64,000 bases of DNA from Euryarchaeota archaeon UBA558 (GTDB taxonomy: Archaea > Thermoplasmatota > Poseidoniia > Poseidoniales > Thalassarchaeaceae): positions 5,872-69,871 of the forward strand of contig DAZE01000020.1 in assembly GCA_002507175.1 (NCBI GenBank), in the 5' to 3' direction. The notes under the pieces were generated by a model that was not told the DNA's origin, did not search any database, and worked only from the letters and a program-made list of their open reading frames with translations. The translations under genes and the position numbers were made by a program. Position 1 is the stretch's first letter. Each line of letters begins with the position of its first letter. Below are positions 5,120 through 58,900 of the stretch, piece after piece.

Positions 5120-5127
5120 ATGCGGGG

Positions 5128-11653: not shown

Positions 11654-13605
<1,952 letters not shown>

Positions 13606-13626
13606 GTCCCCAGAAGCGCATCCTTC

Positions 13627-16686: not shown

Positions 16687-16687
16687 T

Positions 16688-17512
16688 ATGGGTAAACCCA
16701 ATGTTGCGGTTCTCTCGGGTTTTGGGATAAATTGTGAGACTGAGACAATTACCGCGTTTGAAATGGCTGGAGCGACGGCAAAAAGGACCCATGTCAACCG
16801 CTTGGTTGACGGGGAACTCAAACTATCGGACTTTGATATTCTCGCAGTGCCTGGAGGTTTCTCGTTCGGAGATCATTTGGGGAGTGGCAGACTCCTAGGC
16901 AATCGATTGAGATTCTCCTTGAGAGAAGAGGTCAGAGCCTTTGTGGCATCCAAAAAGCCGGTGATTGGTATATGCAATGGATTCCAAGTGCTGGTAAAAA
17001 TGGGCCTTCTACCGGGAGACGAGGATCTTTCCATGAGTCAGACAGCGTCTCTTACGGCAAATGATTGCGGCAGATACGAGGATAGGTGGGTCACGCTTGA
17101 ATTTGATAGAAACAGCCCCTGCATATGGACAAGGGGTATAGAAAGGCTGAGGGTACCTGTACGTCATGGAGAGGGCAAATTTGTCACCAACGATCACAAG
17201 TTGTTGGACAAGTGGGCTCAAAAAGGACAACTTGTGGCAAAATACGTCGATCCAGATAGCACGTACCCCTCCTCCTCGGATGAGATCCTGCCATTTCCGA
17301 TTTCACCAAACCAGTCATGGAGGAATGTGGCCGGCGTCTGTGACCCCACTGGGCTAGTGTTCGGTTTAATGCCACACCCCGAAGCCTACCACTCCACTTG
17401 GCTCTCTCCAGATTGGACAAGAGAGACATCACTCAAACACGGTCCATCTCCAGCCATGTCAATCTTTCGAAATGCGGTTGAGCACTCAAGAAACAATAGA
17501 GAGGTTGCCTGA
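16688..17512 (+). CDS. purQ: Phosphoribosylformylglycinamidine synthase glutaminase subunit
   Basis: Class I amidotransferase triad context GICNGFQVLVKMGLLPG and MPHPE. The start is 1 nt after the purL stop, with GGAGG upstream. Confidence 0.93.
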   Translation: MGKPNVAVLSGFGINCETETITAFEMAGATAKRTHVNRLVDGELKLSDFDILAVPGGFSFGDHLGSGRLLGNRLRFSLREEVRAFVASKKPVIGICNGFQVLVKMGLLPGDEDLSMSQTASLTANDCGRYEDRWVTLEFDRNSPCIWTRGIERLRVPVRHGEGKFVTNDHKLLDKWAQKGQLVAKYVDPDSTYPSSSDEILPFPISPNQSWRNVAGVCDPTGLVFGLMPHPEAYHSTWLSPDWTRETSLKHGPSPAMSIFRNAVEHSRNNREVA

Positions 17513-26104: not shown

Positions 26105-26743
26105 GTGGACGCCAAAGCTGCAGCCGACTCTATCCGCCGATGGCTTGGCAATGAGAAGCTCGAAACAAGACAAGTCGAAGATGGCAAAGCACTATTGCAT
26201 CTGCACGTCAAGTACCCCCCGACAAAAGACGGTCATATATTCAACATAGTGATTCCAAAGGAGCGTTCACTGGTCCTGATTTATTCGGTAACAAGGGTTG
26301 ATCAAGGACAGCAGAATGAGATGACTGAATTTAGAAATGAAGACTTAATTGGATGGAAGGGGTGGCTCCACGAGACTAGAATGAACCTGACTCGATCCAA
26401 ATTAGATTGGGTACTCCACGTAGGAAAGGAGGATGACAAAAAGCTTCCAGGCCCATTACAGGCATTCAATATATCAAAACCCATATGGTTTGATGGACTC
26501 ACCCAGAACGAACTCATGCAGACCATGCGAGCCGTTTGGCTCACGAAACTTTCAATCATCCACCAAATAAAATTCGATTACGGCAAGGGCGTCGGCAAAC
26601 CCGGCCCCGTCGACGATTGGAAGGGAAGGAAGAGAAGCAGTCCAGTTAGATCCAGCCAAAACTCAGCAGTAGAATCACCAGAGGTCAATTTTGACGACGA
26701 TGCAGGATTCGGTCAGGGTTTTGACCCCACTGAATGGGCTTGA
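26105..26743 (+). CDS. Hypothetical protein
   Basis: 212-aa ORF with a GTG start and compact spacing to its neighbours. No confident family assignment. Confidence 0.6.
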   Translation: MDAKAAADSIRRWLGNEKLETRQVEDGKALLHLHVKYPPTKDGHIFNIVIPKERSLVLIYSVTRVDQGQQNEMTEFRNEDLIGWKGWLHETRMNLTRSKLDWVLHVGKEDDKKLPGPLQAFNISKPIWFDGLTQNELMQTMRAVWLTKLSIIHQIKFDYGKGVGKPGPVDDWKGRKRSSPVRSSQNSAVESPEVNFDDDAGFGQGFDPTEWA

Positions 26744-26783: not shown

Positions 26784-29700
26784 ATGAACATCCAATTCCC
26801 AGAGGGTATTGCAGTGGACTCCAAGAAGAAAAAAAACAGCTTTTTGATGACTTTCCTCATGCTATCCAGCCTGATCGCTGTGATGGCGGTTCCAGCTCCC
26901 GTTCAAGCGAGTGAAATTGTACTAACCGATGCCATAAACGTCGTGAATAGTGGCCCTAACTCAGACAACATGGTCGCAGTGAATGCTGACTCCGAGGGGA
27001 ATGTTCACTTTGTATGGAGTAGAAATACACAACACTTGTATTACAAGATGCTAGGCCCTGCGGGCGAGACACTGATCTCAGAGACCCAGATTTCAAATCC
27101 TGGGGCACATCAAGCATGGCATCCCGACATTGCGATTGACTCAGAGGATCGGGTGCACATTGTATGGGCAGACAGGTCAGGTCAGTGGACCATTTGGTAC
27201 CAGATGCTGGACCCAGAAATGCATGAACAGGACGGAACTACTGCAGTTGACGGGCTAAATGGAATATCAATAATCGACGATTACGAAATAAAAACCGCAT
27301 CTCAGGACCGGGACTGGCCAGCAATTGCGATCGACTCCCTTGATAATGCCCACATCGTATGGCAAGACAATCATGACCCGTTGGACTTGTACTACTCCCA
27401 GACTCAGATTTACTACGAAATGATTGAGATTGACGTGTCGAGTAGGGAGGCGCAGACCAAGATAGACGCCACTCTACTCACACCGATAATCGGAATGAAA
27501 GGACATCCGGATATTACCATTGATAGCGAGGATTTCGTCCAAGTTGTATGGGACGACACCAGAGGCGGCAAGGTCGAGATGGTTGTACCCATCGATACCT
27601 CAGGGTCTATGGGCACTGAGTGGGCAGACATGTGCACCGTGTTTTATGGGGGGCAGTTCTCTTCAGGTGGCAATTTTATCGGATTGAAGCCGATGTTGGA
27701 ACAAGCCAACATGACAGTCTTCGAGACACTTTATGGAATAGGAGGTGTCCAGCAAGTTGCAGCCGCCACATCTGGCTATTGCACAACAGCCTATCAGACG
27801 GGAGGATCTGGTAGTCAGGGGCCAAGGGCGAATCATCTAGGTCAGACACCAACAGATACATCAGGAGGTATCAGGAAACTCACTGGCGCTGTGTTAGGCG
27901 GTTCAGCCATATCTCTGAGCTACGATGGTGGTGGCCAAGGTTCAGAGGCATGGGGACCATCTTCAACTTGGTCGTGCCTCTCATGGAGAGATGCCCAGGG
28001 CAGGCTGGGTAACCTGGCGAACCCTCCTACAACGGAAGATCATAGATGGAACCCCAACGCTACGAAAATCATCATACCCATCTCTGATGAGAATGCTAAC
28101 GATGGAAGCCCTGAGGATGCCACAGACCGTGAATCAGTGGATGAGGCCCATGACGCATGTGTGTTAGCTGGCATATCCCCCGTGCCCCTCTGGGCAGGGT
28201 CTGACAATTCCGTAGGATCTCAAATGAGGGACTTAGCGGAATGTCCGAACAATCAACCCGGGACACCATCAGTCACACGATATTGTCCTGGTGGAACACC
28301 AAGAACCTCTCATGCACAAGGGGCTGTATATGCATTCCCAACGGGCCAATCTGCAGCAACGGAACTTCAATTCATGGTTGAAGCCCTAATCTACCTTGCC
28401 ACCAACGCCTCTAGAGAAATTTTCCTGACAGTGCTCGATCCATATGCTCTCCTGGATAATCCATGGGTTGGGTTCACCCCCGGCCAACCAGCCACGCAAT
28501 GTTTCCCACAATGTTCAGCTACCAGCGGCTCAAGGTACTACATCGAGGACGTCGGTCCATCACTGGATCTCGAAGGTTACGGGCATCTGGTCGTCGTCAA
28601 TGACACACGTGTCACCCTTCAGGATGCGTATAGCCTGCACCCAAGCATAGCCTTGGATAGCCAAGGCAATACCCACATAGCCTGGATGGATGGACGTCCC
28701 TACGGCTTCGACCTGGAGGTTAACTACGAGGTCTTCTACACTAGATTGAAACTCAAAGGGGCTGGTATATGGGACGGCGCCAGCGACGGTTTGCCGTCCT
28801 TCGGGATAAAACAGATAATGGATTCTGCAATATCTAACGTCGAGGGATTGGATTGGTTTGACGATAACCCCGATCGTGGTCTTTATGATGCGACTTCCTA
28901 CCTACCAGAGATATTAGTCGATGATTTTGACAACGTACACATCGCTTGGTTGGACAACAGTAACTTAAGCCAAGGCGAGTCAATAATGTATACCCGATTG
29001 AATAGTACTACCGATGAGTATCCAAATGGGTTCCCGACGCTCAATAATCTAGCCCTCGCTGTTCTGGATCAATGGGAAATATTTGAGGTCTCGTCATGGA
29101 AATCTGGTAAACTAGGCCCCAACTCGGGTCGAAACCCACAACTCGGCACACCTCCCGCTTTTGCCAACGACCTAGGAAGTGGAGCTCATGTCGCATGGTC
29201 CGACTCGACAAAATGCGGGGAGAGCAACAGTGCTAAGGAAACCCTCTGCTATGTACACGTTCTTACAGGTTTGGTGGATGTAGCGCTTGCTCCATCCGAG
29301 ACTTACTATCACGTAATCGAACCAGGGGAGAGCACGATTTACAACCTGACGATAGACAACCCTACCCCAGGCCCCTCCGATCTAGTGGCTGACACATTCC
29401 GCCTGACCGTCGAAAACGTACCGATGAATTGGAGCGCTACCCTGTATTACGCGTCGAATCACACTCCAATTTTTGACTCGACCCCCATCTACCTAAAAGG
29501 CAATTCAGACGGTCAAAACCTTGTGCCATTGTACCTGAGGGTCAGAGCCCCAACGATATACCAAGCTGAAGGAGACCAACTTGCTGAGATCAATGTGCGA
29601 GCGGTTTCTTACAAGGATCCGGCAATTGATGATGATCGACAACTTGTCGTGTTGATGGATGTAGTCCATGGAATAGATCTCTCCACCATCAACAAAAACA

Positions 29701-31949
29701 TCGATGTAGAGCAAGGGGGATCTGGGACCTTTTCAGTGATTATCAGAAACACTGGCAATGTTTACGACACATTCGCATTCCACGATCCGACGACATTGGA
29801 TGGCCAAATGGAATGGGGCCTGCAATTTGGATGGGGTATCGATTTCCCTACGGAGGTGTCTTTGGATCCCGGCCAGGCTGTGACAAAGAATCTGAGGGTC
29901 ACGATACCCACATCTCAAACCCCTGGAACCTACATCATATATCTCAAGGGCTGGTCCACAGGTGAACCAATATTCTCTATTGACCATGGTACATATGATG
30001 TACTTGGTTTGTGGATAAACGTCTCAGTAAAGACCTCTGGTAATATCGTATTCAAGATACCCGATGGTACAAACATGAACGTACTTCCTGGTGATTGCGC
30101 AGAGTTTGACATTGAAGTGACCAAGAACTACTCTCCAGGCTCGCTGATTTTTACAACTCCGGGGGGCCCACAGGATCGCCCATCTGACATATCTCAGAGC
30201 GTTTGGAGATATGACCACTGGACGGTCGATTTGGATTTCTCATCTGCGCCCGGAGGCAATGGGATCCCAGATTCGGCCCCACGATATTTTGCCATGGTTG
30301 GCAGTCCGTACATCGTGACAGCCAAAATGTGCGCTCCTTACAATGCCACCGCTGGATTTGGCGAGTCAGTTGTAGTAAGGGCCCATCTTGAAGGAACACC
30401 CGAGGTTAGAGATTCAGTCCTCCTCCTCACCGATGTAATGCAAGTTTATGAGCTGGAGGCAGTAGTTGATACAACGCTATTAGAATTATACCCAGGGCAA
30501 TCATTCCCACTCTCTACCGAGATCACGAACACAGGAAACGGTCCCGACAGATTCGACATCACTGTGGAATCCATAACTGGGCCGGAAGGATCCTACATCT
30601 GGGATATCGATATCCCTAGAGCGAACTTTGGAGAACTCCTTAGAGATCAATCCAAAGAATTCGATCTAATAATCAACGTACCTGAGAGAACGCTTGCTGG
30701 GACCTATAATGTCGTCCTCAATGTTCTCAGCGAAGAGGAATTCGAGGAAACCAAAATCAGGGATACAATTGACCTACAAGTTCAAATCGGTGAGTTTCAT
30801 GATTTGAGAATCACACTTGACCCATCAATGGAATCAAAGATCAAGACGAGCGCCCCAGGAAGAACCGTCAGATTCCTAATGAATCTGACTAACGCTGGGA
30901 ATGTACCAGACACCCCAATGTTGCACAACCACACCAAGTTAGAAAATGGAGGAGGTTGGGATGCCGTACCTGGTATGAACACCCTTTCGAAATGGGTGAT
31001 TTCATATGCATTGGTGGAGAATTTTGATACTGAATTCCCCCAGGAAATTCCCTGCCTTGCTGCTGATCCTAGCTTAGAGACCGACCAGGGTCAATGCTAC
31101 CTATCAACGACAAACACAGTCACGTTCCCAGAGATGGCAGCATTCACGACTATCCAGTTCGTCGCAATTATATCAATCAGTGATGAGGCATCGTTAAGCG
31201 ATCGTATGATTGGAATAAAAACGACATCATCTTATGGCTCCGCCGCAGATGGAGGTGACTTCGATGAAACTCCACAATGGGACGACTCGTGTGCACTCGA
31301 TGAGAACAAGGACGGCCTCCCTGACAACTTCCTTCCAAACTGTGATACTAATGAGCAGGTACTCCAACTGATGCTGAGGGCACCAGACCTCAAGATTCTA
31401 ACAGCAGAAGCCTCCAAGCCTAGGGCTGCTGTTGGAGAAATGATATCCGTGACCGTGAAATTGCAAAATGTTGGGAACATCCACGCAACTGACGTAAGCG
31501 TCATTTTGTGTTCAGATCAGACACCTTCACATATTCGAAAGAACGGTTGTGAGGAAGACAACATAGTATACAGACAGATGATCGAGGCCGTGATGCCGAT
31601 CTCCCAATCCAACAACCAAGAACTCTTGGAGATCTCCTTGCTCTACATAGTTGAGGCGGGGTCCCAAGACATCGTTGTCTATGTCGATCCTGACAATGAT
31701 ATCATTGAGTCGGAGGAGTCGAACAATTACTACAGCATGGAAGAGAAGATGGGATCCAACAATCGCTACCTCGACCCGCTTCTGCAAGCAGTTGCAACCT
31801 ACTCCGTGCCAGTGATCATCATAGGCGCTACCATTGCCTTAGGAGCAGTGGCGGCGGTTGTCATATGGGGTCGCAGGATCGAGGCTATGAGAGAGTATGC
31901 CGAGAAGAAGAGCATGATGACTTACACAGACGACGATATGGAGTTCTAG
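26784..31949 (+). CDS. Giant surface protein: signal peptide, 7 propeller-like repeats with a nested vWA domain, multiple CARDB/NEW3-like beta-sandwich modules, C-terminal TM anchor
   Basis: Signal/TM FLMTFLMLSSLIAVMAVPAPVQA. Repeats carry the HxxW(x)D core. MIDAS VVPIDTSGSMG at 27594..27608. Repeated N(T/A/V)GN..D..F modules (IRNTGNVYDTFAF, ITNTGNGPDRFDI, LTNAGNVPDT, LQNVGNIHATDV). C-terminal helix VPVIIIGATIALGAVAAVVIW. Confidence 0.85.
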   Translation: MNIQFPEGIAVDSKKKKNSFLMTFLMLSSLIAVMAVPAPVQASEIVLTDAINVVNSGPNSDNMVAVNADSEGNVHFVWSRNTQHLYYKMLGPAGETLISETQISNPGAHQAWHPDIAIDSEDRVHIVWADRSGQWTIWYQMLDPEMHEQDGTTAVDGLNGISIIDDYEIKTASQDRDWPAIAIDSLDNAHIVWQDNHDPLDLYYSQTQIYYEMIEIDVSSREAQTKIDATLLTPIIGMKGHPDITIDSEDFVQVVWDDTRGGKVEMVVPIDTSGSMGTEWADMCTVFYGGQFSSGGNFIGLKPMLEQANMTVFETLYGIGGVQQVAAATSGYCTTAYQTGGSGSQGPRANHLGQTPTDTSGGIRKLTGAVLGGSAISLSYDGGGQGSEAWGPSSTWSCLSWRDAQGRLGNLANPPTTEDHRWNPNATKIIIPISDENANDGSPEDATDRESVDEAHDACVLAGISPVPLWAGSDNSVGSQMRDLAECPNNQPGTPSVTRYCPGGTPRTSHAQGAVYAFPTGQSAATELQFMVEALIYLATNASREIFLTVLDPYALLDNPWVGFTPGQPATQCFPQCSATSGSRYYIEDVGPSLDLEGYGHLVVVNDTRVTLQDAYSLHPSIALDSQGNTHIAWMDGRPYGFDLEVNYEVFYTRLKLKGAGIWDGASDGLPSFGIKQIMDSAISNVEGLDWFDDNPDRGLYDATSYLPEILVDDFDNVHIAWLDNSNLSQGESIMYTRLNSTTDEYPNGFPTLNNLALAVLDQWEIFEVSSWKSGKLGPNSGRNPQLGTPPAFANDLGSGAHVAWSDSTKCGESNSAKETLCYVHVLTGLVDVALAPSETYYHVIEPGESTIYNLTIDNPTPGPSDLVADTFRLTVENVPMNWSATLYYASNHTPIFDSTPIYLKGNSDGQNLVPLYLRVRAPTIYQAEGDQLAEINVRAVSYKDPAIDDDRQLVVLMDVVHGIDLSTINKNIDVEQGGSGTFSVIIRNTGNVYDTFAFHDPTTLDGQMEWGLQFGWGIDFPTEVSLDPGQAVTKNLRVTIPTSQTPGTYIIYLKGWSTGEPIFSIDHGTYDVLGLWINVSVKTSGNIVFKIPDGTNMNVLPGDCAEFDIEVTKNYSPGSLIFTTPGGPQDRPSDISQSVWRYDHWTVDLDFSSAPGGNGIPDSAPRYFAMVGSPYIVTAKMCAPYNATAGFGESVVVRAHLEGTPEVRDSVLLLTDVMQVYELEAVVDTTLLELYPGQSFPLSTEITNTGNGPDRFDITVESITGPEGSYIWDIDIPRANFGELLRDQSKEFDLIINVPERTLAGTYNVVLNVLSEEEFEETKIRDTIDLQVQIGEFHDLRITLDPSMESKIKTSAPGRTVRFLMNLTNAGNVPDTPMLHNHTKLENGGGWDAVPGMNTLSKWVISYALVENFDTEFPQEIPCLAADPSLETDQGQCYLSTTNTVTFPEMAAFTTIQFVAIISISDEASLSDRMIGIKTTSSYGSAADGGDFDETPQWDDSCALDENKDGLPDNFLPNCDTNEQVLQLMLRAPDLKILTAEASKPRAAVGEMISVTVKLQNVGNIHATDVSVILCSDQTPSHIRKNGCEEDNIVYRQMIEAVMPISQSNNQELLEISLLYIVEAGSQDIVVYVDPDNDIIESEESNNYYSMEEKMGSNNRYLDPLLQAVATYSVPVIIIGATIALGAVAAVVIWGRRIEAMREYAEKKSMMTYTDDDMEF

Positions 31950-32692
31950 CGTACTAGCCACCAGGGTAGGGGAGACCCCTCACCTCCCGCGATCACATTC
32001 CCTTTGCCTTTGGCTAAGTCTCTGATCAATCTGTCACGCAGGCCCGCCATTATTTTCTCTGCATGTGAAGACTGAATTCTGATACTCTGCGAGAACAGGT
32101 CCAAATCAACCGGCCTCCTTGGCTGATCTAACATTGCGTGAGCCAACTGCCTCTCTTCATAATTGTCAGTTAACTCATCTATGCTCGGGGCCACCTTCAT
32201 CATGACTTGTTGGTGAAGCGCAACCAATGCGTCACGTTGCTCATCTATCTGCTCAAGCCTTGTCTGGAGTTCCGTCATGATTGACATGGCTTCAGTTAGG
32301 GGGATGGTCCTGCGTGTACCCATCTTGTCAATTACTTCCTCTAACCCATCGGGGAGTTTGGATGATAGGCGCATTGGTCCCCCAGATGGCATCATTCTGC
32401 CACTAGCCTTGAACAGACTTGGCCCTAAATCTAATCTCAAACAATATGATTCGGTCACCTTGTAGATCTTCCTTGGAGGCCCACCTTTCTCCGATGGGAC
32501 CTTCTCAATAGAAACAAAACCCGCAGCTTCCAGAATATCTAGGTGTTTGACGACAGCCTGTTGACTTATGTGCAATAGTTCTGAAATTTGTAGAGCGTAA
32601 TGAGGCTCTTTTGTCAATAACTCAAGTATATCTCTTCTCGATTTATTTTCTAGTATTGACAGGAATTCATCGAACCCGACCACACTAACCAA
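31946..32692 (-). CDS. ArsR-type winged-helix transcriptional regulator with a long C-terminal helical extension
   Basis: N-terminal RRDILELLTKEPHYALQISELLHISQQAVVKHLDILEAAGFV. 248 aa. Confidence 0.75.
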   Translation of the reverse strand: MVSVVGFDEFLSILENKSRRDILELLTKEPHYALQISELLHISQQAVVKHLDILEAAGFVSIEKVPSEKGGPPRKIYKVTESYCLRLDLGPSLFKASGRMMPSGGPMRLSSKLPDGLEEVIDKMGTRRTIPLTEAMSIMTELQTRLEQIDEQRDALVALHQQVMMKVAPSIDELTDNYEERQLAHAMLDQPRRPVDLDLFSQSIRIQSSHAEKIMAGLRDRLIRDLAKGKGNVIAGGEGSPLPWWLVR

Positions 32693-41177: not shown

Positions 41178-44100
41178 TCAGGAGCACCCTGTTGTTGAAC
41201 CACAGGCATTGCACTTCAGACAAGTTCCATTTCGCACCATCTGACTGCTCCCACACTCATCGCAGATGTCTCCAGTAAAACCTCTCTCCCTGGCCAATCT
41301 CCTCGTTTTCGTGACCTCATCTTCATCAGTTTCTAGAGTCGAGGAGGTCAGGGTCATTTGCACTTCTCTCTTCTCCCCCTGATGCCTGAGCAGACCATCA
41401 TCTGTAGGGACTGGCCTGCTGATCGAGGTGGTTTCCAGATCCTCTTCAGATACGTGAGCCAAGTCATTCCTGTCTAGATATTGAATCGCGAGTTCTCTGA
41501 AAATGTAGTCTACGATGCTTGTGGACATCTTCACTCTTCCACTACCACCCTGAACCATTCCACTCGGTTCGAATTTTTGGAATGTGAAGGACTTCACGAA
41601 GGCATCTAGCGGCACTCCGTACTGCAAACCAATTGATACGGCAATGGCAAATTGATTCAACATGGACCTCCAGGCTGCGCCCTCCTTCGAGGTCGTTATC
41701 ATAATCTCCCCTAGTCTGCCATCTTCATACTCGCTGGATGTGAGGTAGACTGTGTGTCCTCCAACACGTGATTTTGTGGTTTTTGATGAGCGTACGTCTG
41801 GAAGGGCCTTCCTCGCTGCTATGAAGCTCTGAACAACATTCTCCGCGATAGGCCGAGCTAGATCATCTGGGACAGGTATCGCCTTGACAGCATCCTCGAC
41901 CATGGTCTGTACTGCTCCAGACGAGTCTTCCTCCTCGAGTATGGAGGTATCAACTATCTGACTCATCAAGGGTTGGGACAGTTTACTTCCATCTCGATAG
42001 ACTGCACAGGCTTTGTTCATTGTGCTGTGACTTAGCTCATATGCCTCACGTATATCATCGATTGAAGCTGAGGCGGGCATGTTGATTGTTTTGGAAATCG
42101 CGCCTGAGATGAATGGCTGGGCAGCCGCCATCATTAGAACGTGGGCTTGCCAATCAATGGACCTCGTACCGTGCTTGCCGCATGGTGTGGCGCAATCGAA
42201 TACAGCTAAGTGTTCTTCTTTTAGTCCGGGGGCCCCCTCGATACTCCCATATCCGAAGATTACGTCATTTGCCCGCTCGATGTCTTCGGGAGAAAGGCCG
42301 ATGTGAGCCAGGGTATCGAAGAATACGTTCTGACAATCTTCATCCGACATAGTCAAGACAGTCTTGCAGAAATCATCTCCCAACACCGATGGAGAAAAGG
42401 CCGATCTAATGTCAAAAACATCTGGCATCGAGGACTCTATGTTTGATAGAACCTCGTCTGTGAACCCCTTTTCTTTCAAAATTCGGGGATCGAGGCCGGG
42501 GCTGCCTGAAAGTCGTCCAGTCCCCATGATGTGGTCTACGATCGAAGTGACCTCTGAATCCGTGTAGCCTAATCGCTTCAGTGCACTCGGGACCCCTCTG
42601 TTGATTATTCTGAGCGTCCCACCTCCTGCTAGTTGCTTGTACTGCACCAGTGAGAATTGTGGCTCGACCCCAGTTGTATCAGCAGCCATAACCAGGCCTA
42701 TGGTTCCAGTTGGAGCGATGACGGTGGTCTGAGCATTTCTGTAACCGTATTCCTCCCCCCCTTGCACCGCTCGATCCCAAGCAGATTTTGCGGCATCCAA
42801 GAGATCGCTGGGACATCGTTTTGCGTCTATTCCCATGGGGGTTATGGTTAGACCCTCGTATTCGCTTCCTTTCGCATCATAAGCCGCTCTCCTGTGGTTC
42901 CTCATCACTTTGAGCATGTGATCAGCATTCTCGTGATATTTCGGGAACGGCCCTAACGAACCTGCGAGTTCTGCCGATGTGGCATAGGACTCACCACACA
43001 TGATCGATGATAATGCTCCACACACTGCGTAAGCTCGGTCATCCGCATATGGCAACCCCATGTGCATTAGAAGAGACCCCAAGTTGCAGTACCCGAGACC
43101 TAATGTCCTGTATTCGTATGATTTCCTGGCAATCTCTTCAGAAGGAAACTGAGCCATCAGGACACTGATCTCTAGCGTCATCGTCCATAGCCTCACGCTG
43201 TGTTGGAATGATGGAATGTCGAACTTTTGAGCATCGGTGTCGAAGTAGTGCAACAGGTTGATGCTCGCGAGATTACATGCTGTATCATCTAAAAACATGT
43301 ATTCTGAACATGGGTTTGACCCATTGATTCGTCCACCCTCTGGGCACGTATGCCACTCGTTTATGGTAGTATCAAATTGTACGCCTGGGTCAGCACATGC
43401 CCAAGCAGTGTAGGCAACCTTGTCCCAGAGTTCTTTGGCAGGCATGGACCTACAGGGCGTGGGTTCCCTGCCACTCTCATTGGCGTTCTTCAGCTCAGTT
43501 CTATGATAAAGGTTCCAAGTCCCATCGTTTTCCAGAGCATCCATGAATGAGTTTGGTACACGGACCGAGTTGTTGGAGTTCTGCCCAGAGACGGTGCCAT
43601 AACCTTCACCCTGCCAGTCTGTATCCATCTTATCGAAATGGATCGATTTCCATCCCTGTTCTGCAAGGTCCAAGAATCTCTTGACGTGAGAATTGGGAAC
43701 ATGGTTCTTTATCGCCTTAGCGGCAGCCTTCTTCAATTCTAGATTGTCATTCATGTCAAGCTTGTTACCTTTGCCGTCGAAGCTCCATATTGCATCCATG
43801 ATTGCGTCGGCATGACCCTGTAGCAGATTAGATCCAATAACCAAGGCAGAAACCTTCTCTTCCTCGGATAACTTCCAATCTATGTATTCCTCGATATCGG
43901 GATGGTCCAGATCTAATGTGACCATCTTTGCAGCTCTTCTCGTGGTGCCACCGGATTTTATAGCACCAGCAGCCCTATCTCCAATTTTTAGGAATGAAAT
44001 TAATCCACTTGAGGTGCCACCTCCTGAGAGTGGCTCCCCTGAACCCCTTATGTTTGAGAAGTTTGAACCTGTTCCTGATCCGTATTTGAACAATAGTGCT

Positions 44101-44879
44101 TCCCGGTTCCAGAGCCCCATTATTGAGTCTGTGCCACCAACCAGCGAGTCTGAGACAGATTGAATGAAGCAGGCATGTGGCTGGGGGTGTTCATATGCAT
44201 TCGTAGAGGTCATCAGTTCTCCGGTTGACGGGTCGATGTATCGATGACCCTGGGCAGGTCCCTCTATCCCGTAGGCCCAATGCAATCCTGTGTTGAACCA
44301 TTGAGGGCTGTTTGGCGCTGATCGCTGGCTGGCGATCAAGTAGCACATTTCGTCAAAGTAGGCCCTTGCGTCTGCTTCGGCTGCGAAGTAGCCATGCTTC
44401 CATCCCCAATATGTCCACGTTCCAGCCAAGCGACGGAATAGCTCTCTACCGTGACTTTCACCAATGAACCTTTTTTCGGGATCCAGAGATTGTAGTTTCT
44501 CATGATCTGGTTCGCTCCTCTGTAACCATGTTGGTACTCCCTTCTCTTTCACCCTGCGTAGTATCGCTGGAACCCCAGCTTTTCTGAGGTACTTCTGGGC
44601 AAGCACCTTCCCTGCCACCCCAGAGAAGCCCGAAGGCAATCTGACGTCATCTATCCTGTGTGCGAGAGACCCATCAGCATTCCGAATCTCGACGTCCATC
44701 TCTATCCAATCGAATTGATCGAAGGGGTCTTCCCCGACCGTCGTGAACCGTCTTTCAATGACTAATCCGGTTTCAATCGGCCCTTCTGAATTCTTGCCTC
44801 CTTTTTCAGTTCTGGTCTGCATAGTATCGTCTTCCTTGTCACCCTCCGCCCCGATAACCCAGAGCGAGGGATTCAACAT
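41178..44879 (-). CDS. nrdJ: Adenosylcobalamin-dependent ribonucleotide reductase (class II, NrdJ)
   Basis: TACNLASINL, NPCSEY and C-terminal zinc ribbon CDECGSSQMVRNGTCLKCNACGSTTGCS. Alternative start ATG at 44822. Confidence 0.95.
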   Translation of the reverse strand: MLNPSLWVIGAEGDKEDDTMQTRTEKGGKNSEGPIETGLVIERRFTTVGEDPFDQFDWIEMDVEIRNADGSLAHRIDDVRLPSGFSGVAGKVLAQKYLRKAGVPAILRRVKEKGVPTWLQRSEPDHEKLQSLDPEKRFIGESHGRELFRRLAGTWTYWGWKHGYFAAEADARAYFDEMCYLIASQRSAPNSPQWFNTGLHWAYGIEGPAQGHRYIDPSTGELMTSTNAYEHPQPHACFIQSVSDSLVGGTDSIMGLWNREALLFKYGSGTGSNFSNIRGSGEPLSGGGTSSGLISFLKIGDRAAGAIKSGGTTRRAAKMVTLDLDHPDIEEYIDWKLSEEEKVSALVIGSNLLQGHADAIMDAIWSFDGKGNKLDMNDNLELKKAAAKAIKNHVPNSHVKRFLDLAEQGWKSIHFDKMDTDWQGEGYGTVSGQNSNNSVRVPNSFMDALENDGTWNLYHRTELKNANESGREPTPCRSMPAKELWDKVAYTAWACADPGVQFDTTINEWHTCPEGGRINGSNPCSEYMFLDDTACNLASINLLHYFDTDAQKFDIPSFQHSVRLWTMTLEISVLMAQFPSEEIARKSYEYRTLGLGYCNLGSLLMHMGLPYADDRAYAVCGALSSIMCGESYATSAELAGSLGPFPKYHENADHMLKVMRNHRRAAYDAKGSEYEGLTITPMGIDAKRCPSDLLDAAKSAWDRAVQGGEEYGYRNAQTTVIAPTGTIGLVMAADTTGVEPQFSLVQYKQLAGGGTLRIINRGVPSALKRLGYTDSEVTSIVDHIMGTGRLSGSPGLDPRILKEKGFTDEVLSNIESSMPDVFDIRSAFSPSVLGDDFCKTVLTMSDEDCQNVFFDTLAHIGLSPEDIERANDVIFGYGSIEGAPGLKEEHLAVFDCATPCGKHGTRSIDWQAHVLMMAAAQPFISGAISKTINMPASASIDDIREAYELSHSTMNKACAVYRDGSKLSQPLMSQIVDTSILEEEDSSGAVQTMVEDAVKAIPVPDDLARPIAENVVQSFIAARKALPDVRSSKTTKSRVGGHTVYLTSSEYEDGRLGEIMITTSKEGAAWRSMLNQFAIAVSIGLQYGVPLDAFVKSFTFQKFEPSGMVQGGSGRVKMSTSIVDYIFRELAIQYLDRNDLAHVSEEDLETTSISRPVPTDDGLLRHQGEKREVQMTLTSSTLETDEDEVTKTRRLARERGFTGDICDECGSSQMVRNGTCLKCNACGSTTGCS

Positions 44880-47763: not shown

Positions 47764-48444
47764 TTGCCTCGCTCGGCCATGGACAACCCAAGGGAACTAC
47801 TCCTGTCACTTTCTGATGCTGCCGCTGGAACTGACAATCCACTTTCTTGGTTTGAAGACCTTTATTCCAGAGCAAATAGGGATGATAGCTGGATTCCATG
47901 GTCTGATGGAAATCCCAATCCACTGTTGGTTGACTGGGTGATCGGGCAACCTGCGGGGAAAGCATTAGTTGTTGGCTCAGGACTAGGGGAAGATGCTGCG
48001 TTTCTAGAAAAAAAGGGATGGCAGGTAACGGCTTTCGACATCTCAGAAACTGCGATAAAATGGTCTTCGGACAGGTACAGTCACACGTCTGTTTCTTGGA
48101 TGGTAGCTGACCTGCTGAACCTTCCTCCAGAGTTGTGCGGTGACTTTGATTTGGTACTTGAAGTCCACATCTTACAGGCCATGCCCGTCGAACTAAGGAA
48201 AATAGCCTCACAAAAACTAGCCCCCCTGGTATCAGAAAACGGTTTCTTGGTCTGTATTGGACGCTATGCTACAGAGGACGATCTTACTATCGGGCCACCA
48301 TGGCCATTGAGCTATTCATTTATTGAGTCCATAGGCGCGAGTCTCGGTGAAATGAGCTTGAAGAAAATCAGGCTTGAGTCCGATGATAGTTCCGTTTCCC
48401 GCTACAGGGCTATTTGGAGACGAACGAAAATTAAGAACGATTGA
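47764..48444 (+). CDS. SAM-dependent methyltransferase (TPMT-like class I)
   Basis: ALVVGSGLGEDAAFL (motif I), VTAFDISETAI (acidic post-beta2) and a Trp-rich N-terminus as in thiopurine-MTase-like proteins. Alternative ATG at 47779. Confidence 0.75.
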   Translation: MPRSAMDNPRELLLSLSDAAAGTDNPLSWFEDLYSRANRDDSWIPWSDGNPNPLLVDWVIGQPAGKALVVGSGLGEDAAFLEKKGWQVTAFDISETAIKWSSDRYSHTSVSWMVADLLNLPPELCGDFDLVLEVHILQAMPVELRKIASQKLAPLVSENGFLVCIGRYATEDDLTIGPPWPLSYSFIESIGASLGEMSLKKIRLESDDSSVSRYRAIWRRTKIKND

Positions 48445-51400
48445 TGGACTTGGTAATCTGGTCGGCATTTTCGACCACCACAAATCCGTATTGTTCCTCG
48501 AGCGACCTTCTTATCATACGAAAATCTGAATCTCTCGTGGCCACCAATACAGAACCGACGTCCCGGAGCTTCGGCGATATGCTGCTCGAATAAGAAGCCA
48601 AACTAGCTGCATCGATGATTATCTGTCGATCCCCCTCCTCGGGGTAGATCGCCTTACCATTAATCACGGATCTTGATGGCTCGTCATCTCTTCTTTGCCG
48701 CTTGCTTTCATCTATTTTCGCAAAGATGTTTGAGTGGCTTTCGAGGAAGTTGCTAAGACTACTAATGATCGAATTGTCCTGCTCGAATGCAAGATTGACC
48801 CCACTGAATACCTCAATGACATAATTTCGAATTTCCTCTATCCCTGCATTTTCTATAGATGACCATAAGCCTTGGTCTTGGTATTCGCCGTGAAAAAGCC
48901 TCTTTGAGGTAGAGACGTCGCGTGTTCTATTGGAAAACTCCTTCATAACTGATTCTGGTAAGTAGGTTTTGATCGACCCTGCGTCTTTCTGTCTTCTCAA
49001 TGCCCATTGAAACGCTCTTTCCAGGGACCAATCCAGATTACCCAAACCATAAGGTGAACCCCGCTTGATCAATTCGTCTTTGAATGCGTCAATTAGCAAG
49101 TTGGTGTCTACAATGACAAGCGGTTTCAAACTTGTTATGTTGAAGGTTCTTCGGTCCTTGATAGGTATGGAAGACTCCAATGTGGTGAACATAGACCTTT
49201 GAGATCGCCGAAGTCTTCTGACTCCCTCCTCATCGAAACCCCCGTGATTAATTGCAGATTGGAACATTCTCAATCCAGAAAGTGGCTTTCTCTCAGCCTG
49301 TTCTTGTGCAATTAAGGATATTTCAAGCACGTCCCTCCCCTTCTGCAATTCCTCTTTTAGTCGCCTCTCAAGTCTATCTTCATTCCTGCGCCCTGGCCTA
49401 TCAAGCCTCTTTAATGCCGCCTTTACCCGGCCTTCGAAAGGATCACTCGGAAGTCCTAACTCATCTGGATAAGTCCTCAATCCGTTAATTTCCTGGGTCT
49501 TTTCTTCTTGATCCATATCCGAAGCATATCCCAACACTAGATTGGTCGCAACGTCGCTTCTGCCCTTGTCGTATTCACTACAAACTCTGAGAAATAATTG
49601 AAACCTTCGGGTTATCGCAGCCATCAATTCGGCATTTCGATCAATTAGGTCAACAGCCTGTTTCCATGCTTTGGCGTGTGCGAAGTGAATCAGTGCCATC
49701 CGCCGAAGTTGTGTAGTTCTCTCAAACCTTTGAGGCTCCAATCGCCTCGCAGCCTCTAGGAAACATCTTCCTGCATTCAGATGGTCTCCTTTACCGATCG
49801 AGATAGCGGCTCTCACTATCTGTGAACCAGATGAATCGGGAGCATGTTCTCGATACCATTCTTCCATTACGGGGAGGGCTATATGGTATTCTTCTATCAT
49901 TTCAGAGATTGATATCACCAATTGTATGGATAACCGTCCTTCATTGACAATCGAAACGAGAGTATCGGTCGCGGACCTCTTTTTGTCTTCGTCTTGCATT
50001 TGTAATTCAATTCTCGCTCTGTTCAGCCGTAGCAAGGTGATCAAGGAATCAAAAAGGGAAGACTCAATGTCACCTAGGCTTGAATTATCGGCAGCGGTAA
50101 TCAATTGCTCTATGCTATTTTCCCTCACTATGCCCGTTCCGTCCTCCAATAGGGCCCTTCTAGTTTGATTCAAGGCCTTGATTCCAGTCGTGCCAAGCCT
50201 ATCATGAAGGGCATTGAGGTCATGGGAGAATCCGTTTATTACAGCTAGCAATGCCACAGAAACCTCGGAAAGACAAGGATCCTCAATCCTTTCTAAGGCC
50301 TCTATCGATTTCTTTCTGAGGTCGACCATCCTGTCCATTTTGTTGATCCCGATTCTTGCCGACAAAAGGTGCCATACGAGCAACCCCCGCATTGGGTTTC
50401 TAACAACCGCTTCTCCGACAAGAATTTCGGATAGCAGCTTTATTTCATTTCCTTCGGTTGCTATGTCGGACAAGACTTCCAAATGGCCTGCTTTCAGACC
50501 TCTGGCAATGACCTCTTTAGCCACTATAGTCCTGATTTTTACCGATTTTGAACCATCATATAGTATCTCGATCAACCCTGATGAGTCTATTTTTTTTGCA
50601 CTTTCGGAAGCCATTTCCATCAAATCCTTATCATTCCCAGAAAATCTTCCCACTGCAATTAGCACGTCGATCGGCCACATTGGACGGCCAAGAATGACTT
50701 CTCGAGCCCCATCAAGTCGATTTCCGTCAATCAGTTTCGATGCAATCATGAAACTCAACTTAGCCGGCCAAGCCGAACCGTGACTGTCCAACAAGTCCCC
50801 ACCTCCCGTAAGTGCATCTAGGTCTAGATCTAAATCTGGGAGACTCACGGCCCGCCAGGCCTCAATTATCACAGCGTAGGATAGCCTACTCTCAGGCTCT
50901 TTTTTGATCCACGAGGCCACGTCTTCTTCACTTTTGGAATGTCGGAACGAGTTTAGAGTCAGATACAGTGTTGCTATCTTCTTGAGATCCGGGTCGCTAG
51001 AAGCAGTTCTGAATAACGCTTCGGCGTCCTCGCCAATCGATGCCATCATTATGCCGACAAAGAGGGATCCTACACCCGTATCCGTACCAAAATCTCCAAT
51101 TTGCTTCTTGACCCTGCGCGAGTCCACTTTCGTTGAATACTCACGCCTCAACATGAGAAGTGATTTTCTCTGTTTCTGGGATAGCTTCATTGGAGGATCG
51201 ATTGATAGCCAATCATGCAATGCGGAATGGTCGATTGGATCAAAATTGGCCTTTTCCAACCATGTTTCGATATTCGACTCCGCATTTGAGACTTCCAGTA
51301 CCGGGAACCTACTCAATTCAGCGAAGATCGGAGCCTCTCTGGCCAACCTCTCCCAAGCTGGATGAACACCCTCATCGCACCTCTTTCTGACATCAGAGGC

Positions 51401-51739
51401 GTCTCTTGTGTCTTTCATTACATCGGATTGTAATAATATGTATCTGCAGAGACGAAAAGCAGGGTTGTCTTCTTCCTCGTCTCCAATAATCGCTTCCCTT
51501 GGATCTGAGGTCGATCGGCGAACCCTTCTGCCGGCACGTCGAGAGGATTTCTTGGATTCAGATCCATTATCGTCTTGACGCTCAGGACTGGTTTTCGCCG
51601 CAGCGATCCTCACTAGAGCCCTCCACGATTTCGGCAACTCCTCATATCCAACCGTACGAGAAACCTTCCTCAATCGCGCTCTCTCATCATCACCTGCAGA
51701 GGACAGTGCCTCCAGGCATTCAAGGAGTTGAGATTCCAT
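48431..51739 (-). CDS. Large helical-repeat protein with a C-terminal PIN-like nuclease domain
   Basis: The last 231 aa (48434..49126) carry the four PIN acidic positions in order: LVIVDTNLLID, PESVMKEF, IIIDAASLA, VATRDSDF. The preceding roughly 870 aa are alpha-helical-looking with no recognised motif. Confidence 0.75.
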   Translation of the reverse strand: MESQLLECLEALSSAGDDERARLRKVSRTVGYEELPKSWRALVRIAAAKTSPERQDDNGSESKKSSRRAGRRVRRSTSDPREAIIGDEEEDNPAFRLCRYILLQSDVMKDTRDASDVRKRCDEGVHPAWERLAREAPIFAELSRFPVLEVSNAESNIETWLEKANFDPIDHSALHDWLSIDPPMKLSQKQRKSLLMLRREYSTKVDSRRVKKQIGDFGTDTGVGSLFVGIMMASIGEDAEALFRTASSDPDLKKIATLYLTLNSFRHSKSEEDVASWIKKEPESRLSYAVIIEAWRAVSLPDLDLDLDALTGGGDLLDSHGSAWPAKLSFMIASKLIDGNRLDGAREVILGRPMWPIDVLIAVGRFSGNDKDLMEMASESAKKIDSSGLIEILYDGSKSVKIRTIVAKEVIARGLKAGHLEVLSDIATEGNEIKLLSEILVGEAVVRNPMRGLLVWHLLSARIGINKMDRMVDLRKKSIEALERIEDPCLSEVSVALLAVINGFSHDLNALHDRLGTTGIKALNQTRRALLEDGTGIVRENSIEQLITAADNSSLGDIESSLFDSLITLLRLNRARIELQMQDEDKKRSATDTLVSIVNEGRLSIQLVISISEMIEEYHIALPVMEEWYREHAPDSSGSQIVRAAISIGKGDHLNAGRCFLEAARRLEPQRFERTTQLRRMALIHFAHAKAWKQAVDLIDRNAELMAAITRRFQLFLRVCSEYDKGRSDVATNLVLGYASDMDQEEKTQEINGLRTYPDELGLPSDPFEGRVKAALKRLDRPGRRNEDRLERRLKEELQKGRDVLEISLIAQEQAERKPLSGLRMFQSAINHGGFDEEGVRRLRRSQRSMFTTLESSIPIKDRRTFNITSLKPLVIVDTNLLIDAFKDELIKRGSPYGLGNLDWSLERAFQWALRRQKDAGSIKTYLPESVMKEFSNRTRDVSTSKRLFHGEYQDQGLWSSIENAGIEEIRNYVIEVFSGVNLAFEQDNSIISSLSNFLESHSNIFAKIDESKRQRRDDEPSRSVINGKAIYPEEGDRQIIIDAASLASYSSSISPKLRDVGSVLVATRDSDFRMIRRSLEEQYGFVVVENADQITKSINRS

Positions 51740-55982: not shown

Positions 55983-58900
55983 GTGGGTATGATAGCAGAT
56001 TTTGGTAGAAGGAGAGAAGTGAGTAGATCCCTGTTCCTTGTTGTTCTGATGGTAGCAAGTTTACAGACGCCGACCTTGGCCGCAACAACCACAGGTACCT
56101 CTGATAATCACAGTCCATACGAGTCTCCGCCCCAGATCCAAATTCAATCTGAGGATATCGACACTACGACAAATTATGCCCCCAATTTTGCGATGCTTCC
56201 TGACCATCCAGCCTTCAAAGACGCATCATGGTCTGACCCAGGCTTACTTTACGGGAGAATAACTGACATCTCCTTCTTGGACGAGGGATACAGATTCATG
56301 GTTGAAGAGACCGAAACGGAGGACCATGATAATGACGGAATCAACGACCTTGATGATTTGGATGATGACAACGATGGGATTTCAGACCTCATAGAGCGGT
56401 TTGATGGATGCTTCGGAACAGACCCATATGACCATGACAATGACGGTTTGAAAGATGAGTTTGACTTTGATGACGATAATGACGGTATTTTGGAGGGGCC
56501 TATCGACTATTCACAGGGCACAGATCCTTGGAATGTCAGCACTGATCGATACGTGGACCCCCAGACTACCCATCCCTGGACGGGCCTCCCAGTGGGAACT
56601 GGATACTTGGTAGATCAGGATCCATACGACCACGACAACGACGGGGTCCCTGACGAGGATATAGATGGGTCAGGAAAAGGGTCCTATGACGAAGATGATG
56701 ATAATGACGCCAGAATTGACCAATTCGTCTGGCCCTGTGACTTTGATGGCGATGGCCTTCAGGACTACTGGGATGCAGATGACGATAATGATGGCGTGAT
56801 CGATATCTGGGACACACATCCATGGAACAGTTCTGAAACTCGGAACATAACTGCTACCGCGCAGAACTGGAGCGCCGCTGAATCATGGGCATCTAGCAAA
56901 ACTCACCAGGTATCCATAACCGAAAACGGGTACTCAACACCTAATTTGGCCATAGAGATCGGAGACTCGGTTAGGTGGACAAATGACGATATCGAGAACC
57001 GTACTGTGACGGCAGCAGACGGCTCATTCGACAGCGGCATAATCCCCCCCGGCGGATTCTTCGTCCACTTGTTTGAAAATGAGGGCCAGACAAGATATTC
57101 CGAAACAGCAGGAACAGGTGTTGGAGATGGAACAATTACTACAAATGCTGCAACTGGCTTGCCCTTCCCAGACGCATTCAACCTCGACTTCGATACATAT
57201 GGTAAAGAGAAGCTCGACTTCGCCTTCAAGGAGCAAAATCTATGGCATCCTCGGAATCCTGCATTCGATCAGATTGTTGACGGAGATCTGGATGGCGACG
57301 GATTACCCAATTTCATCGATCCCGATAATGACAATGACGGAACACCTGATTCCGCGGACACTGATGACGATAACGATGGCTTGCTGGACATGTGGGACAT
57401 AGACGATGACAACGATGGCATCCCAGATAACTGTCTGAATGTCCTTGGCCCACAAGATAACATGGAGGGCTTCTCAGAATACTTTGGCCAAACTCCTGGA
57501 GTTGATTGTGAGATCGACTATGACAGGGACGCCGACGACGATGCCTACAGAGCGATCGATTCGGACTATGATTTGGTTTGGGATTGGAAGGACACAGATC
57601 TTGGCGCAGCAGATCCTGCAGATAACCTACTCGGAAATCCATCCTTAGATCCGAACGACCTGCCTTATGATTTGGACAATGATGGAATTTTGAATCAGGA
57701 CGATCCATATCCCATGGTGCATTCCGATGTAATTGATACCTGGAACTGCGAGTCGCTGCAGAACCCGAATCCAGTGAACCCAGACCCTAGGTGCTTAACA
57801 GAGCGAAAATCGTACACAGGAAACAACGATTGGGACGGCGACGGCTTCTCTAACTGGGAGGACGTCGATGATGACAATGACGGCGTTCTGGACTGGCTGG
57901 ACATAGATGAGAACTGCGATCTTGATGACGATAACGATCTTCATCTCCTAAACGGTTCCAGATACCGGGACGATGGTCCCAACGCCATTGATACTGACAT
58001 TGATGGCGATGGCCTGTCAAATGATGAGGATTGGGATGATGACAATGACGGAATATCCGACCTGTACGACCCAGACGACGGGAATTGCGGTGTAGTGGAC
58101 ATTGATTCCACCGATCAATTTGACAACTCGTATTCTCACCAAGACGGCGACATCATAGACGGTAGCGCCGATAGTCAAATCTATGTCGGCACAGGGACAC
58201 TGCAATGGGATATGTTCTGGCACTTTAGCCCATTTTTCGTAGATCATGGATTCGTTCTTCCATACAATGGATACCAAGATGACTTCACATTTGGACCTCC
58301 TACGATCGTTTCCAATGGAAATGTCCCAGAGATGTATTGGCATGTCATGATGAAATGGAGCCCATGGAATGGCAACAACTACTTTGACCTCGATATGGAT
58401 GGAGACTCTTTGATCAATGGTATCGATGTTGACATAGACGCTGATGGCGTCCCAAATTGGTGGGACAGGGATGAGGGCTCCGACGGAAGACTGGATGTGA
58501 ACGATCCAGCATATGGTGGCTCATTGGATGACGGAGAATGCGACTTGTCCATGTCTTTCCTGTTGGGTCTGGACGACGATCAAATTAGCTGTGGCATAGC
58601 CTTGGCATGGCTCTATGGATTCCCACTCAGTCAGGCTAGATCCAGTAATGGTGTCCCATTCGTCCTACCATATTCCTCTAGGCCAGATCCACTCTACACT
58701 GATGGCCCATACAACGGAGAGAATTCTGCTGGTATTAATGACTTCACCTGTGAAACCAACTGCTTTCACTTCGATTTCCTCGGCCCTGCAGACGCAGGCC
58801 CTTCCGCTGCCGTGACATTTGATGACATGATCAACAACAGGGACCTGTGGACGGCCTACGTTGGAATTAATTTTGGCATGTTCCAATGGGTCTCCGACGG

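Follow-up and report, generated by a model that had tools for sequence, protein, structure and literature searches.

Several surface proteins are known in which a von Willebrand factor A (vWA) domain is nested within another domain. In integrin beta I-like domains, an enlarged vWA domain with inserted loops is nested in an Ig-like hybrid domain, and a Glu contributes to the MIDAS, an adhesion site that depends on a metal ion. The tip adhesins of Gram-positive pili (SpaC and RrgA type) carry a vWA domain nested in a beta-sandwich domain, and CglB and CglD of Myxococcus have been described as integrin-like. To our knowledge, the integrin alpha chains of chordates are the only other proteins described in which a seven-bladed propeller on a membrane-anchored stalk carries a nested vWA domain. 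In the I-domain alpha chains (alpha-L, alpha-M, alpha-X, alpha-2 and alpha-E), the vWA domain with its MIDAS lies in a loop of the propeller head and leads back to it through a C-terminal helix; the chain then continues into a stalk of beta-sandwich domains, one C-terminal transmembrane helix and a short tail in the cytoplasm. These alpha-I domains are a chordate acquisition from collagen-VI-like vWA domains and sit in the 4-1 connection between blades 2 and 3 (PMC12422189). Within an incomplete coverage of the literature, a search for archaeal or prokaryotic vWA domains nested in propellers returned nothing beyond papers on integrins, on bacterial FG-GAP propellers, on PilY1 and on CglB/CglD. 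Corresponding parts, in the same order, are found in a 1721-amino-acid (aa) protein encoded on a 64,000-nucleotide stretch of DNA (referred to below as the window) from Euryarchaeota archaeon UBA558, a member of the Poseidoniales (contig DAZE01000020.1, positions 5,872 to 69,871). Its head is predicted to be a single seven-bladed propeller, the fourth blade of which is interrupted by a divergent vWA domain. We consider it fairly probable that such a propeller with a nested vWA domain acts as a surface-anchored, cation-dependent adhesin or receptor of Poseidoniales. In the same incomplete coverage, descriptions of this Poseidoniales family, or of a vWA domain nested in a propeller outside integrins, were not found.

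The first-pass annotation of the window had proposed seven related, propeller-like units with a vWA domain nested inside the fourth. A regular expression for the unit motif, PxIAxDSxxxxH(I/V)xW, matches the 1721-aa protein exactly seven times (aa 64, 114, 179, 242, 620, 708 and 791) and returns the same seven strings as that annotation. When the residues of the protein were shuffled 20,000 times, 19,994 of the shuffles held no match and six held one; none held more. No other stop-free segment of at least 80 aa in the six frames of the 64-kb window has two or more matches, and no further copies of the blade motif or of the vWA domain were found in the window. The fourth unit reads PDITIDSEDFVQVVWDDTRGGK and continues directly into VEMVVPIDTSGSMG, the break coming after VWDDTRGGK. 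The interruption is about 281 aa long (aa 263-543), with KIIIPISDENANDG at aa 428-441, and the blade resumes as REIFLTVLD; REIFLTVLDPYAL stands at aa 544-556. The limits first given for the insert, 27573..28412 (aa 264-543), lie within one residue of those in the structure model (aa 263-543).

Three alignments were used in the analysis: A1 (31 sequences) for the head, A2 (15 sequences) for the insert and A3, which consists of 22 compact domains related to the insert. The family was also followed in a genome scan with one genome per GTDB species, which gave 495 matching stretches; details were taken from the best 80, referred to here as the 80 loci. The gene and its parts are as follows:

26784..31949, + strand: whole gene of the putative type-I surface protein, 1721 aa, from the list of open reading frames (ORFs); homologues of 1400-1766 aa occur in metagenome-assembled genomes (MAGs) of Poseidoniales.
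26784..26909, + strand: signal-peptide-like N-terminus, with KKKK, a hydrophobic segment at aa 20-38 and VQA followed by SE (hydropathy scan and reading of the sequence).
26910..27569, + strand: N-terminal part of the propeller, with the closing strand (aa 42-47), blades 1-3 and strands 1-2 of blade 4 (DSSP of the AlphaFold2 model, motif search, Foldseek).
27570..28412, + strand: predicted nested vWA domain, aa 263-543, with four extra loops and six conserved cysteines (AlphaFold2, Foldseek, hhalign).
27594..27608, + strand: putative MIDAS DxSxS loop, D271-T-S273-G-S275, then M276 (conservation in A1, 80 loci, alignment of A3 with alpha-L).
27945..27959, + strand: E388-A-W-G-P, whose invariant Glu falls where vWA domains have the alpha3-alpha4 loop (invariance in A2 and A3, 80 loci, alignment of A3 with alpha-L).
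28083..28091, + strand: S434-D435-E436 at the end of beta4 (KIIIPISDE), holding the putative MIDAS Asp, which corresponds to TDG of I domains (alignment with alpha-L, 80 loci).
28413..29288, + strand: C-terminal part of the propeller, with the remainder of blade 4 (REIFLTVL as strand 3, then a long loop and strand 4) and blades 5-7 (DSSP of the AlphaFold2 model).
29289..31778, + strand: stalk of about 830 aa made of beta-sandwich modules (Pfam and NCBIfam hits, regular expression).
31806..31871, + strand: predicted C-terminal transmembrane helix, aa 1675-1696 (hydropathy scan, peak 2.62).
31872..31946, + strand: predicted cytoplasmic tail of 25 aa, GRRIEAMREYAEKKSMMTYTDDDMEF, without GFFKR (sequence, regular expression).

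The head (aa 41-872) was modelled with AlphaFold2 from A1, with a mean predicted local distance difference test (pLDDT) of 77 and a predicted template modelling score (pTM) of 0.80. According to DSSP, repeats 1-3, 5 and 6 have four strands each and repeat 7 has three, while an N-terminal strand (aa 42-47) is available to close blade 7. In repeat 4, strands 1 and 2 (aa 239-246 and 252-258) precede the insert, and REIFLTVL (aa 544-551) forms strand 3. The total is 28 strands, or seven times four. In a Foldseek search against the PDB, the top matches of the head were 4irt, 5mum and 5mvh (E 9e-6 to 2e-5, probability 1.0). Their alignments span 801-810 columns of the 832-residue query, with a template modelling (TM) score of 0.59-0.60 on targets of about 395 residues, and the insert appears as a gap. 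A closed ring predicts that one rigid superposition covers both sets of repeats and skips the insert, as is seen with these GH145 targets. The proposal that the seven units form one propeller is thus supported by the pTM, by the strand count and by the placement of about 806 columns onto single seven-bladed GH145/BNR_4 propellers. GH145, since renamed PL42 and included in Pfam BNR_4, consists of seven-bladed propellers, as do the PL24 and PL25 ulvan lyases and FoRham1 (PMC8377490). Further Foldseek matches of the head were the ulvan lyases 6byx and 7drq, FoRham1 (7esl) and the lectin propellers PLL, PHL and CV39L.

Sequence models point to the same group of folds. SBBP (PF06739) scores 16.0 bits on the 1721-aa protein against a cut-off of 20.5, and the NCBIfam model NF053835 ('PDIAV motif-containing lipoprotein') matches aa 16-135 with 50 bits, which is below its threshold. 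BNR_4 (Pfam PF15892) gives no hit on this protein; it reaches E <=0.01 in four of 31 family members, the best being P0006 (E 3.5e-5, 23.7 bits against a cut-off of 27.3). Homologues without the insert, for which a survey had been suggested, were found; they carry the same blade motif, IAIDSxDNxH(I/V)VW, at a regular spacing of about 55 aa (e.g., P0047, P0056 and P0057). One of these insert-free relatives, P0056, scores 39.2 bits with SBBP, and another, P0051, has the sole BNR_4 score above the cut-off (31.1 bits). The head is therefore best described as a predicted single seven-bladed propeller with SBBP/BNR_4-like blades of the type PDIA(I/V)DS...H(I/V)VW, the closure of the ring resting on the model. 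It has the seven-bladed fold and weak BNR_4 or SBBP sequence matches in common with GH145/PL42, PL24, PL25, SBBP and NF053835. In contrast to the archaeal protein, none of these families is known with a nested domain, and the protein's own hits to them stay below the curated cut-offs.

The fold matches of the head also allow an enzymatic reading. The propeller could be the core of a lyase or hydrolase of the PL24, PL25 or PL42 (GH145) kind, acting on uronic-acid algal polysaccharides such as ulvan, with the vWA domain as an accessory module for substrate binding or cation holding. The best matches, namely GH145/PL42, ulvan lyases and FoRham1, are indeed seven-bladed enzymes acting on acidic sugars, and Marine Group II (MGII) archaea are linked to algal organic matter (PMC8821943). 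Nevertheless, we regard an enzyme as unlikely. The identity to the matched enzymes is 6-12%, no curated model reaches its threshold, and the non-catalytic lectin propellers match nearly as well. Moreover, the most conserved part of the protein is the insert and not the propeller: the mean identity to the query is 53% for the insert, compared with 42% and 36% for the N-terminal and C-terminal propeller parts, respectively. The vWA domain would also lie on the face of the B-C and D-A loops, which is usually the active face of propeller enzymes, and could cover it.

The model places the vWA domain within the fourth unit, as had been claimed: the chain leaves after strand 2 of repeat 4 and re-enters as strand 3, in agreement with the positions of the motifs. 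In the full head model, REIFLTVL has a mean pLDDT of 83 (model residues 501-510, which cover most of the strand), whereas in a model of the insert alone it is unformed, with pLDDT below 50. The strand forms solely in the full model and thus belongs to the blade and not to the vWA domain, which ends with its C-terminal helix (aa 524-539). In the simplest register, with the N-terminal strand closing blade 7, the vWA domain would stand in place of the hairpin that joins strands 2 and 3 in blade 4. In standard propeller topology, the 2-3 and the 4-1 loops lie on one face. Hence, the vWA domain should emerge on the same kind of propeller face as the integrin I domain, even if the site differs, being after strand 2 of repeat 4 in the archaeal protein and at the junction of blades 2 and 3 in integrins (PMC12422189).

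The insert was modelled separately with AlphaFold2 (aa 256-562, alignment A2). The model has a pTM of 0.83 and an alternating order of strands and helices. The best Foldseek matches are the I-like domains of integrins beta8, beta2, beta3, beta7 and beta6 (6om1, 8tcf, 5e6s, 3v4p; best E 1.3e-3, probability up to 0.99), at identities of 8-11%, followed by the vWA domain of Rpn10 (TM 0.48) and the A domain of integrin alpha2 (TM 0.55). As modelled, the fold is closest to the integrin beta I-like domains and looks more like a beta-I than an alpha-I domain.

On the side of sequence, the relationship runs through a bridging family. With the A2 profile as query, an exhaustive HMMER search retrieved 313 proteins, about 20-30 with the full architecture and more than 100 with distant matches in two segments. 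These distant matches correspond to compact domains, about 190 aa long, that show the pattern DTSGSM...EDWGP...P(I)SDEGP; in several of them, Pfam VWA or Integrin_beta gives a weak hit at this very position (Integrin_beta, for instance, weakly matches P0117). One compact relative is named 'VWA domain-containing protein [Thermoplasmata archaeon]' by NCBI (MCD6448388.1). When A2 was compared with A3 by hhalign, the whole compact domain was aligned, from beta1 to the last helix, with a probability of 99.96% and an E-value of 3.7e-39; the Poseidoniales insert corresponds to the compact form plus four extra loops, about 90 aa in total. Searched against PDB sequences, the A3 profile found vWA proteins in all 60 of the best matches listed. 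Collagen VI alpha3 (E 5.6e-6) and the integrin alpha-L I domain (E 2.5e-4, about 120 aligned positions) were among them, as were integrins alpha-M, alpha-X, beta6, beta8 and beta3, PTMP1, BatB, SpaC, Mfa5, anthrax toxin receptor 2 and vWF A. A direct comparison of A2 with one canonical VWA sequence by hhalign had aligned just the 15-residue MIDAS strand (probability 13%) and was replaced by this bridge over A3. The proposal that the roughly 280-aa segment is a vWA domain is thus upheld indirectly by the fold and by the chain from A2 over A3 to the PDB, and direct searches of the hmmscan type miss VWA. Homology through the intermediate family supports an assignment of the insert as a divergent, loop-expanded, cysteine-rich vWA domain of a prokaryotic subfamily.

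The compact domains are the direct sequence family of the insert, with which they share the three motifs and the first pair of cysteines. They differ in their surroundings, since they occur alone or in tandem in other multidomain proteins and none is flanked by blades. No compact-subfamily vWA domain with flanking blades was seen outside the Poseidoniales family among these distant relatives, and the nesting therefore appears to be specific to that family. The compact subfamily (P0101-P0201) has more than 100 representatives at 50% clustering, some of them tandem pairs, with members in MAGs of Thermoplasmata and Thermoproteota. Most members fall below the gathering threshold of Pfam VWA or give fragment matches only. 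A sizeable subfamily with the signature DTSGSM...EDWGP...SDEGP is therefore largely missed by current Pfam models.

The insert was said to start with a textbook MIDAS strand, and this description holds at the level of sequence. DTSGSM stands at the end of beta1, and in the A3 profile alignment D271, S273 and S275 correspond to D137, S139 and S141 of alpha-L; they are at least 90% conserved in A1. In the same alignment, PISD435E is aligned to IITD239GE of alpha-L. The Glu of ExWGP (E388) is invariant in A2 and A3 and adjoins T206 of alpha-L. E388 is probably the fourth MIDAS ligand, a candidate that would take the place of the usual Thr as in the integrin beta I-like domains. Such a Glu of the beta-I type agrees with the fold ranking of the insert, in which the beta I-like domains come first.

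Within the order Poseidoniales, this architecture is old and broadly distributed. Of the 495 stretches, the best 80 belong without exception to MAGs of uncultured archaea, under the titles Poseidoniales, Thalassarchaeaceae and Marine Group II or the broader ones Euryarchaeota, Methanobacteriota and Thermoplasmatota archaeon. All 80 of these loci have preserved DTSGSM, ExWGP and SDE as well as the starting point of the insert, and nearly all have blade motifs on both sides of it. The close homologues, with source names such as Candidatus Poseidoniales, Poseidoniaceae and Euryarchaeota archaeon MAGs, all align straight through the insert. The family is present in both MGIIa and MGIIb, the members from Poseidoniaceae having been found by protein search. 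At the protein level, the insert is 98% identical to those of the MAGs UBA182 and UBA487. TSP_3 repeats occur in seven of 31 family members, some of them in runs. As 'thrombospondin' adhesion genes have been reported to be widespread in Poseidoniales (PMC6461757), family members with TSP_3 runs may be the genes so described.

This distribution bears on the idea that the nesting is unreal, i.e., that two half-propellers surround an unrelated cysteine-rich linker, or that assembly or gene calling produced a chimera. The failure of direct domain searches to detect a vWA domain and the weak Foldseek statistics of the insert would fit such an artefact. It is nonetheless very improbable, as dozens of independent assemblies and the 80 loci show this architecture without interruption and with the insert in an identical position. 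In addition, the head reaches the pTM given above, a single propeller superposes over both halves, and the hhalign match connects the insert to a vWA family. Some homologues go a step further in their nesting. In P0033, P0038 and P0063, an extra segment of about 130-270 aa lies inside the vWA domain, between the last strand and the C-terminal helix (e.g., aa 558-808 of P0063). This gives three levels of nesting (propeller, vWA and extra domain) and has no counterpart in the 1721-aa protein. Pfam has no match on the extra segment nested in the vWA domain of P0033.

The first-pass annotation had also called the architecture integrin-alpha-like. This applies to the topology and does not extend to homology, as the propeller is of the SBBP/BNR_4 and not of the FG-GAP type, the insertion lies in repeat 4 and GFFKR is missing. 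Several tests of membership in the integrin alpha family gave negative results. No Pfam hit to FG-GAP at E <=10 and no FG...GAP pattern were found in the 1721-aa protein, nor do the 50 best Foldseek matches of the head include an integrin alpha chain. Calcium hairpins of the pattern Dx[DN]xDGxxD are absent from aa 43-835; the sole copy in the protein lies in the stalk, at aa 1506. No GFF or GFFKR motif follows the transmembrane helix. Integrin alpha chains have calcium hairpins, GFFKR and a beta partner, whereas in the archaeal protein the first two are absent by regular expression and a partner was not seen in the neighbourhoods. The vWA domain differs as well, with about 280 aa, extra loops and cysteines and, probably, a Glu instead of a Thr at the metal site.

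A true evolutionary relationship to integrin alpha, with an archaeal ancestor or a horizontally acquired integrin, would explain the shared order of parts, from the propeller with its nested vWA domain over the beta-sandwich legs to one transmembrane helix and a short tail. It would also be in line with integrin domains being the top fold matches of the insert. Since the membership tests failed and the affinity of the insert is prokaryotic, such an ancestry is effectively excluded. The insertion site is another one, alpha-I domains arose in chordates (PMC12422189), and the nearest relatives of the insert are compact prokaryotic vWA domains, those of Thermoplasmata included. The resemblance to integrins is convergent, and the protein is a member of neither the alpha nor the beta family. 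The integrin beta I-like domains share with the insert an enlarged vWA domain with inserted loops that is nested in another domain, but the host there is an Ig-like hybrid domain instead of a propeller. The pilus tip adhesins and CglB/CglD would have in common with the archaeal protein, if it is an adhesin, that they are surface adhesins using a vWA domain with a MIDAS. They differ in their anchoring (sortase pilus or outer-membrane lipoprotein), their taxonomy and their host domain, and none of them has a propeller as host. The head with a propeller and an inserted vWA domain is a convergent, lineage-wide re-invention in Poseidoniales.

Outside the head, the protein has the layout of a type-I membrane-anchored surface protein, most likely a glycoprotein. 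A location at the cell surface is suggested by its termini, the six cysteines of the insert and many N-x-S/T sequons, with simple hydropathy as the basis of the signal peptide and membrane topology calls. Signals of CARDB, NEW3/NPCBM_assoc, Ig_VWA7, DUF11-type and 'choice-of-anchor T' models (Pfam, NCBIfam) were obtained in the stalk (aa 836-1665), with a NEW3/Ig_VWA7-like module at aa 1237-1313 and CARDB at aa 1533-1651. The single TSP3-like calcium motif detected by regular expression, DENKDGLPD, is the stalk copy at aa 1506 mentioned above.

With such a layout, the protein might alternatively be a structural envelope protein of the S-layer type, in which the MIDAS bridges neighbouring subunits via a cation. 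Archaeal S-layers are commonly dependent on divalent cations, and the large size, the C-terminal transmembrane anchor, the many sequons and the beta-sandwich repeats would suit such a role. The family also appears near-universal across Poseidoniales, with its 495 stretches in species representatives. The probability of this alternative is nevertheless low. The composition of the stalk varies greatly, with TSP_3 in some members and extra nested domains in others, which is more adhesin-like than lattice-like, and in one locus (L003) the homologue stands among other giant surface proteins. In that locus, it lies between a 2008-aa protein and a 2332-aa protein with RCC1/WD40_RLD repeats (3-6029 and 10490-17488), in a cluster of giant surface proteins. 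In another locus (L001), the homologue is followed by an unannotated protein of 673 aa (12255-14276).

The genes around the surface-protein gene in the window are archaeal housekeeping genes, namely those for topoisomerase VI A and B, TFIIB, aconitase, an FAD oxidoreductase and an acyltransferase. The 5' neighbour encodes a DUF2299 protein (26105..26743, + strand). The 3' neighbour, a 248-aa regulator of the ArsR/HTH_20 type (31946..32692, - strand), is convergent, with a 3' end that reaches into the stop codon of the surface-protein gene. Further along, a 2662-aa ORF (55983..63971, + strand), which ends 29 nt before the end of the window, shows only weak matches to Big_1/CarboxypepD_reg and DUF4129 and probably encodes a further giant surface protein. 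An ORF of 1102 aa (48431..51739, - strand) has no Pfam hit at E <=1e-4. A class II (B12-dependent) ribonucleotide reductase of 1233 aa is encoded at 41178..44879 (- strand); its barrel domain is matched in two stretches and is accompanied by a C-terminal TSCPD domain, and an intein or other insertion could account for the split match.

The reading as a cation-dependent adhesin or receptor can be put in the form of a mechanism. The chain would leave blade 4 at K263, form the Rossmann-like vWA domain and, after the C-terminal helix at aa 524-539, re-enter the propeller as REIFLTVL. The head would be held away from the membrane by the stalk of about 830 aa, followed by the one transmembrane helix and the 25-aa tail. 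In seawater, D271/S273/S275/(E388)/D435 may hold Mg2+ or Ca2+, whose coordination sphere would be filled up by an acidic ligand group in the manner of other vWA adhesins. Candidate ligands are a protein carboxylate or an acidic polysaccharide of algae or particles; a glycan is hinted at because the propeller fold is kin to lectins and uronate-acting lyases. The outcome would be attachment of the cell to particles or phytoplankton, or the capture of polymeric substrates.

Several results weigh against this reading. No direct match to curated vWA models of Pfam and NCBIfam was obtained with the whole protein, the insert alone (E <=10) or 31 family members. Likewise, when PDB sequences were searched with the protein, A1 and A2 (phmmer and hmmsearch), no vWA domain came up, and the matches were limited to TSP3 repeats from the tails of homologues and chance hits. 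The Foldseek statistics of the insert are marginal (best E 1.3e-3, TM 0.35-0.55) with a large root-mean-square deviation, in a list that is nearly uniform over the top 50. The alignments behind the AlphaFold2 models are shallow (31 and 15 sequences), and the extra loops of the insert have a pLDDT of 50-65. As for the metal site, the conserved MIDAS Thr of the alpha3-alpha4 loop was not found in the alignments of the insert. Moreover, the homologue P0022, which is full-length and present on TARA contigs (L001 8001-12206, L002 1054-5259), has lost DxSxS, with VVSAGGTM in place of (I/V)DTSGSM and SDAGP in place of SDEGP; this degenerate site implies that metal binding is not obligatory for every family member. 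A conserved operon partner or a gene resembling a beta subunit was not found in the neighbourhoods of the window, L001 and L003, which differ from one another in their genes.

In a bolder version of the adhesin reading, the family would serve Poseidoniales as their main receptor for cation-dependent adhesion and would be a true functional analogue of the I-domain integrins. Binding at the MIDAS would then shift the C-terminal helix of the vWA domain, and the shift would be relayed to the propeller, the stalk and possibly across the membrane. We regard this version as unlikely. The family might also be a docking site for viruses of Poseidoniales.

Marine Group II comprises the most abundant planktonic archaea of the surface ocean, and they are uncultured. 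What is known of their attachment to particles or phytoplankton amounts to guesses from gene content, e.g., archaella and genes labelled 'thrombospondin' (PMC6461757). With putative metal-site motifs that are strictly conserved, the surface protein described here, which is present family-wide, is a concrete candidate for attachment to particles or algae. It offers a testable construct (aa 43-835) and defined positions for point mutants (D271, S273, S275, E388 and D435). Furthermore, an independent second origin of the design with a vWA domain in a seven-bladed propeller suggests that it is a favoured solution and not a historical accident. If the reading as a functional analogue were true, an allosterically regulated receptor made of a propeller and a vWA domain would have evolved independently in archaea.

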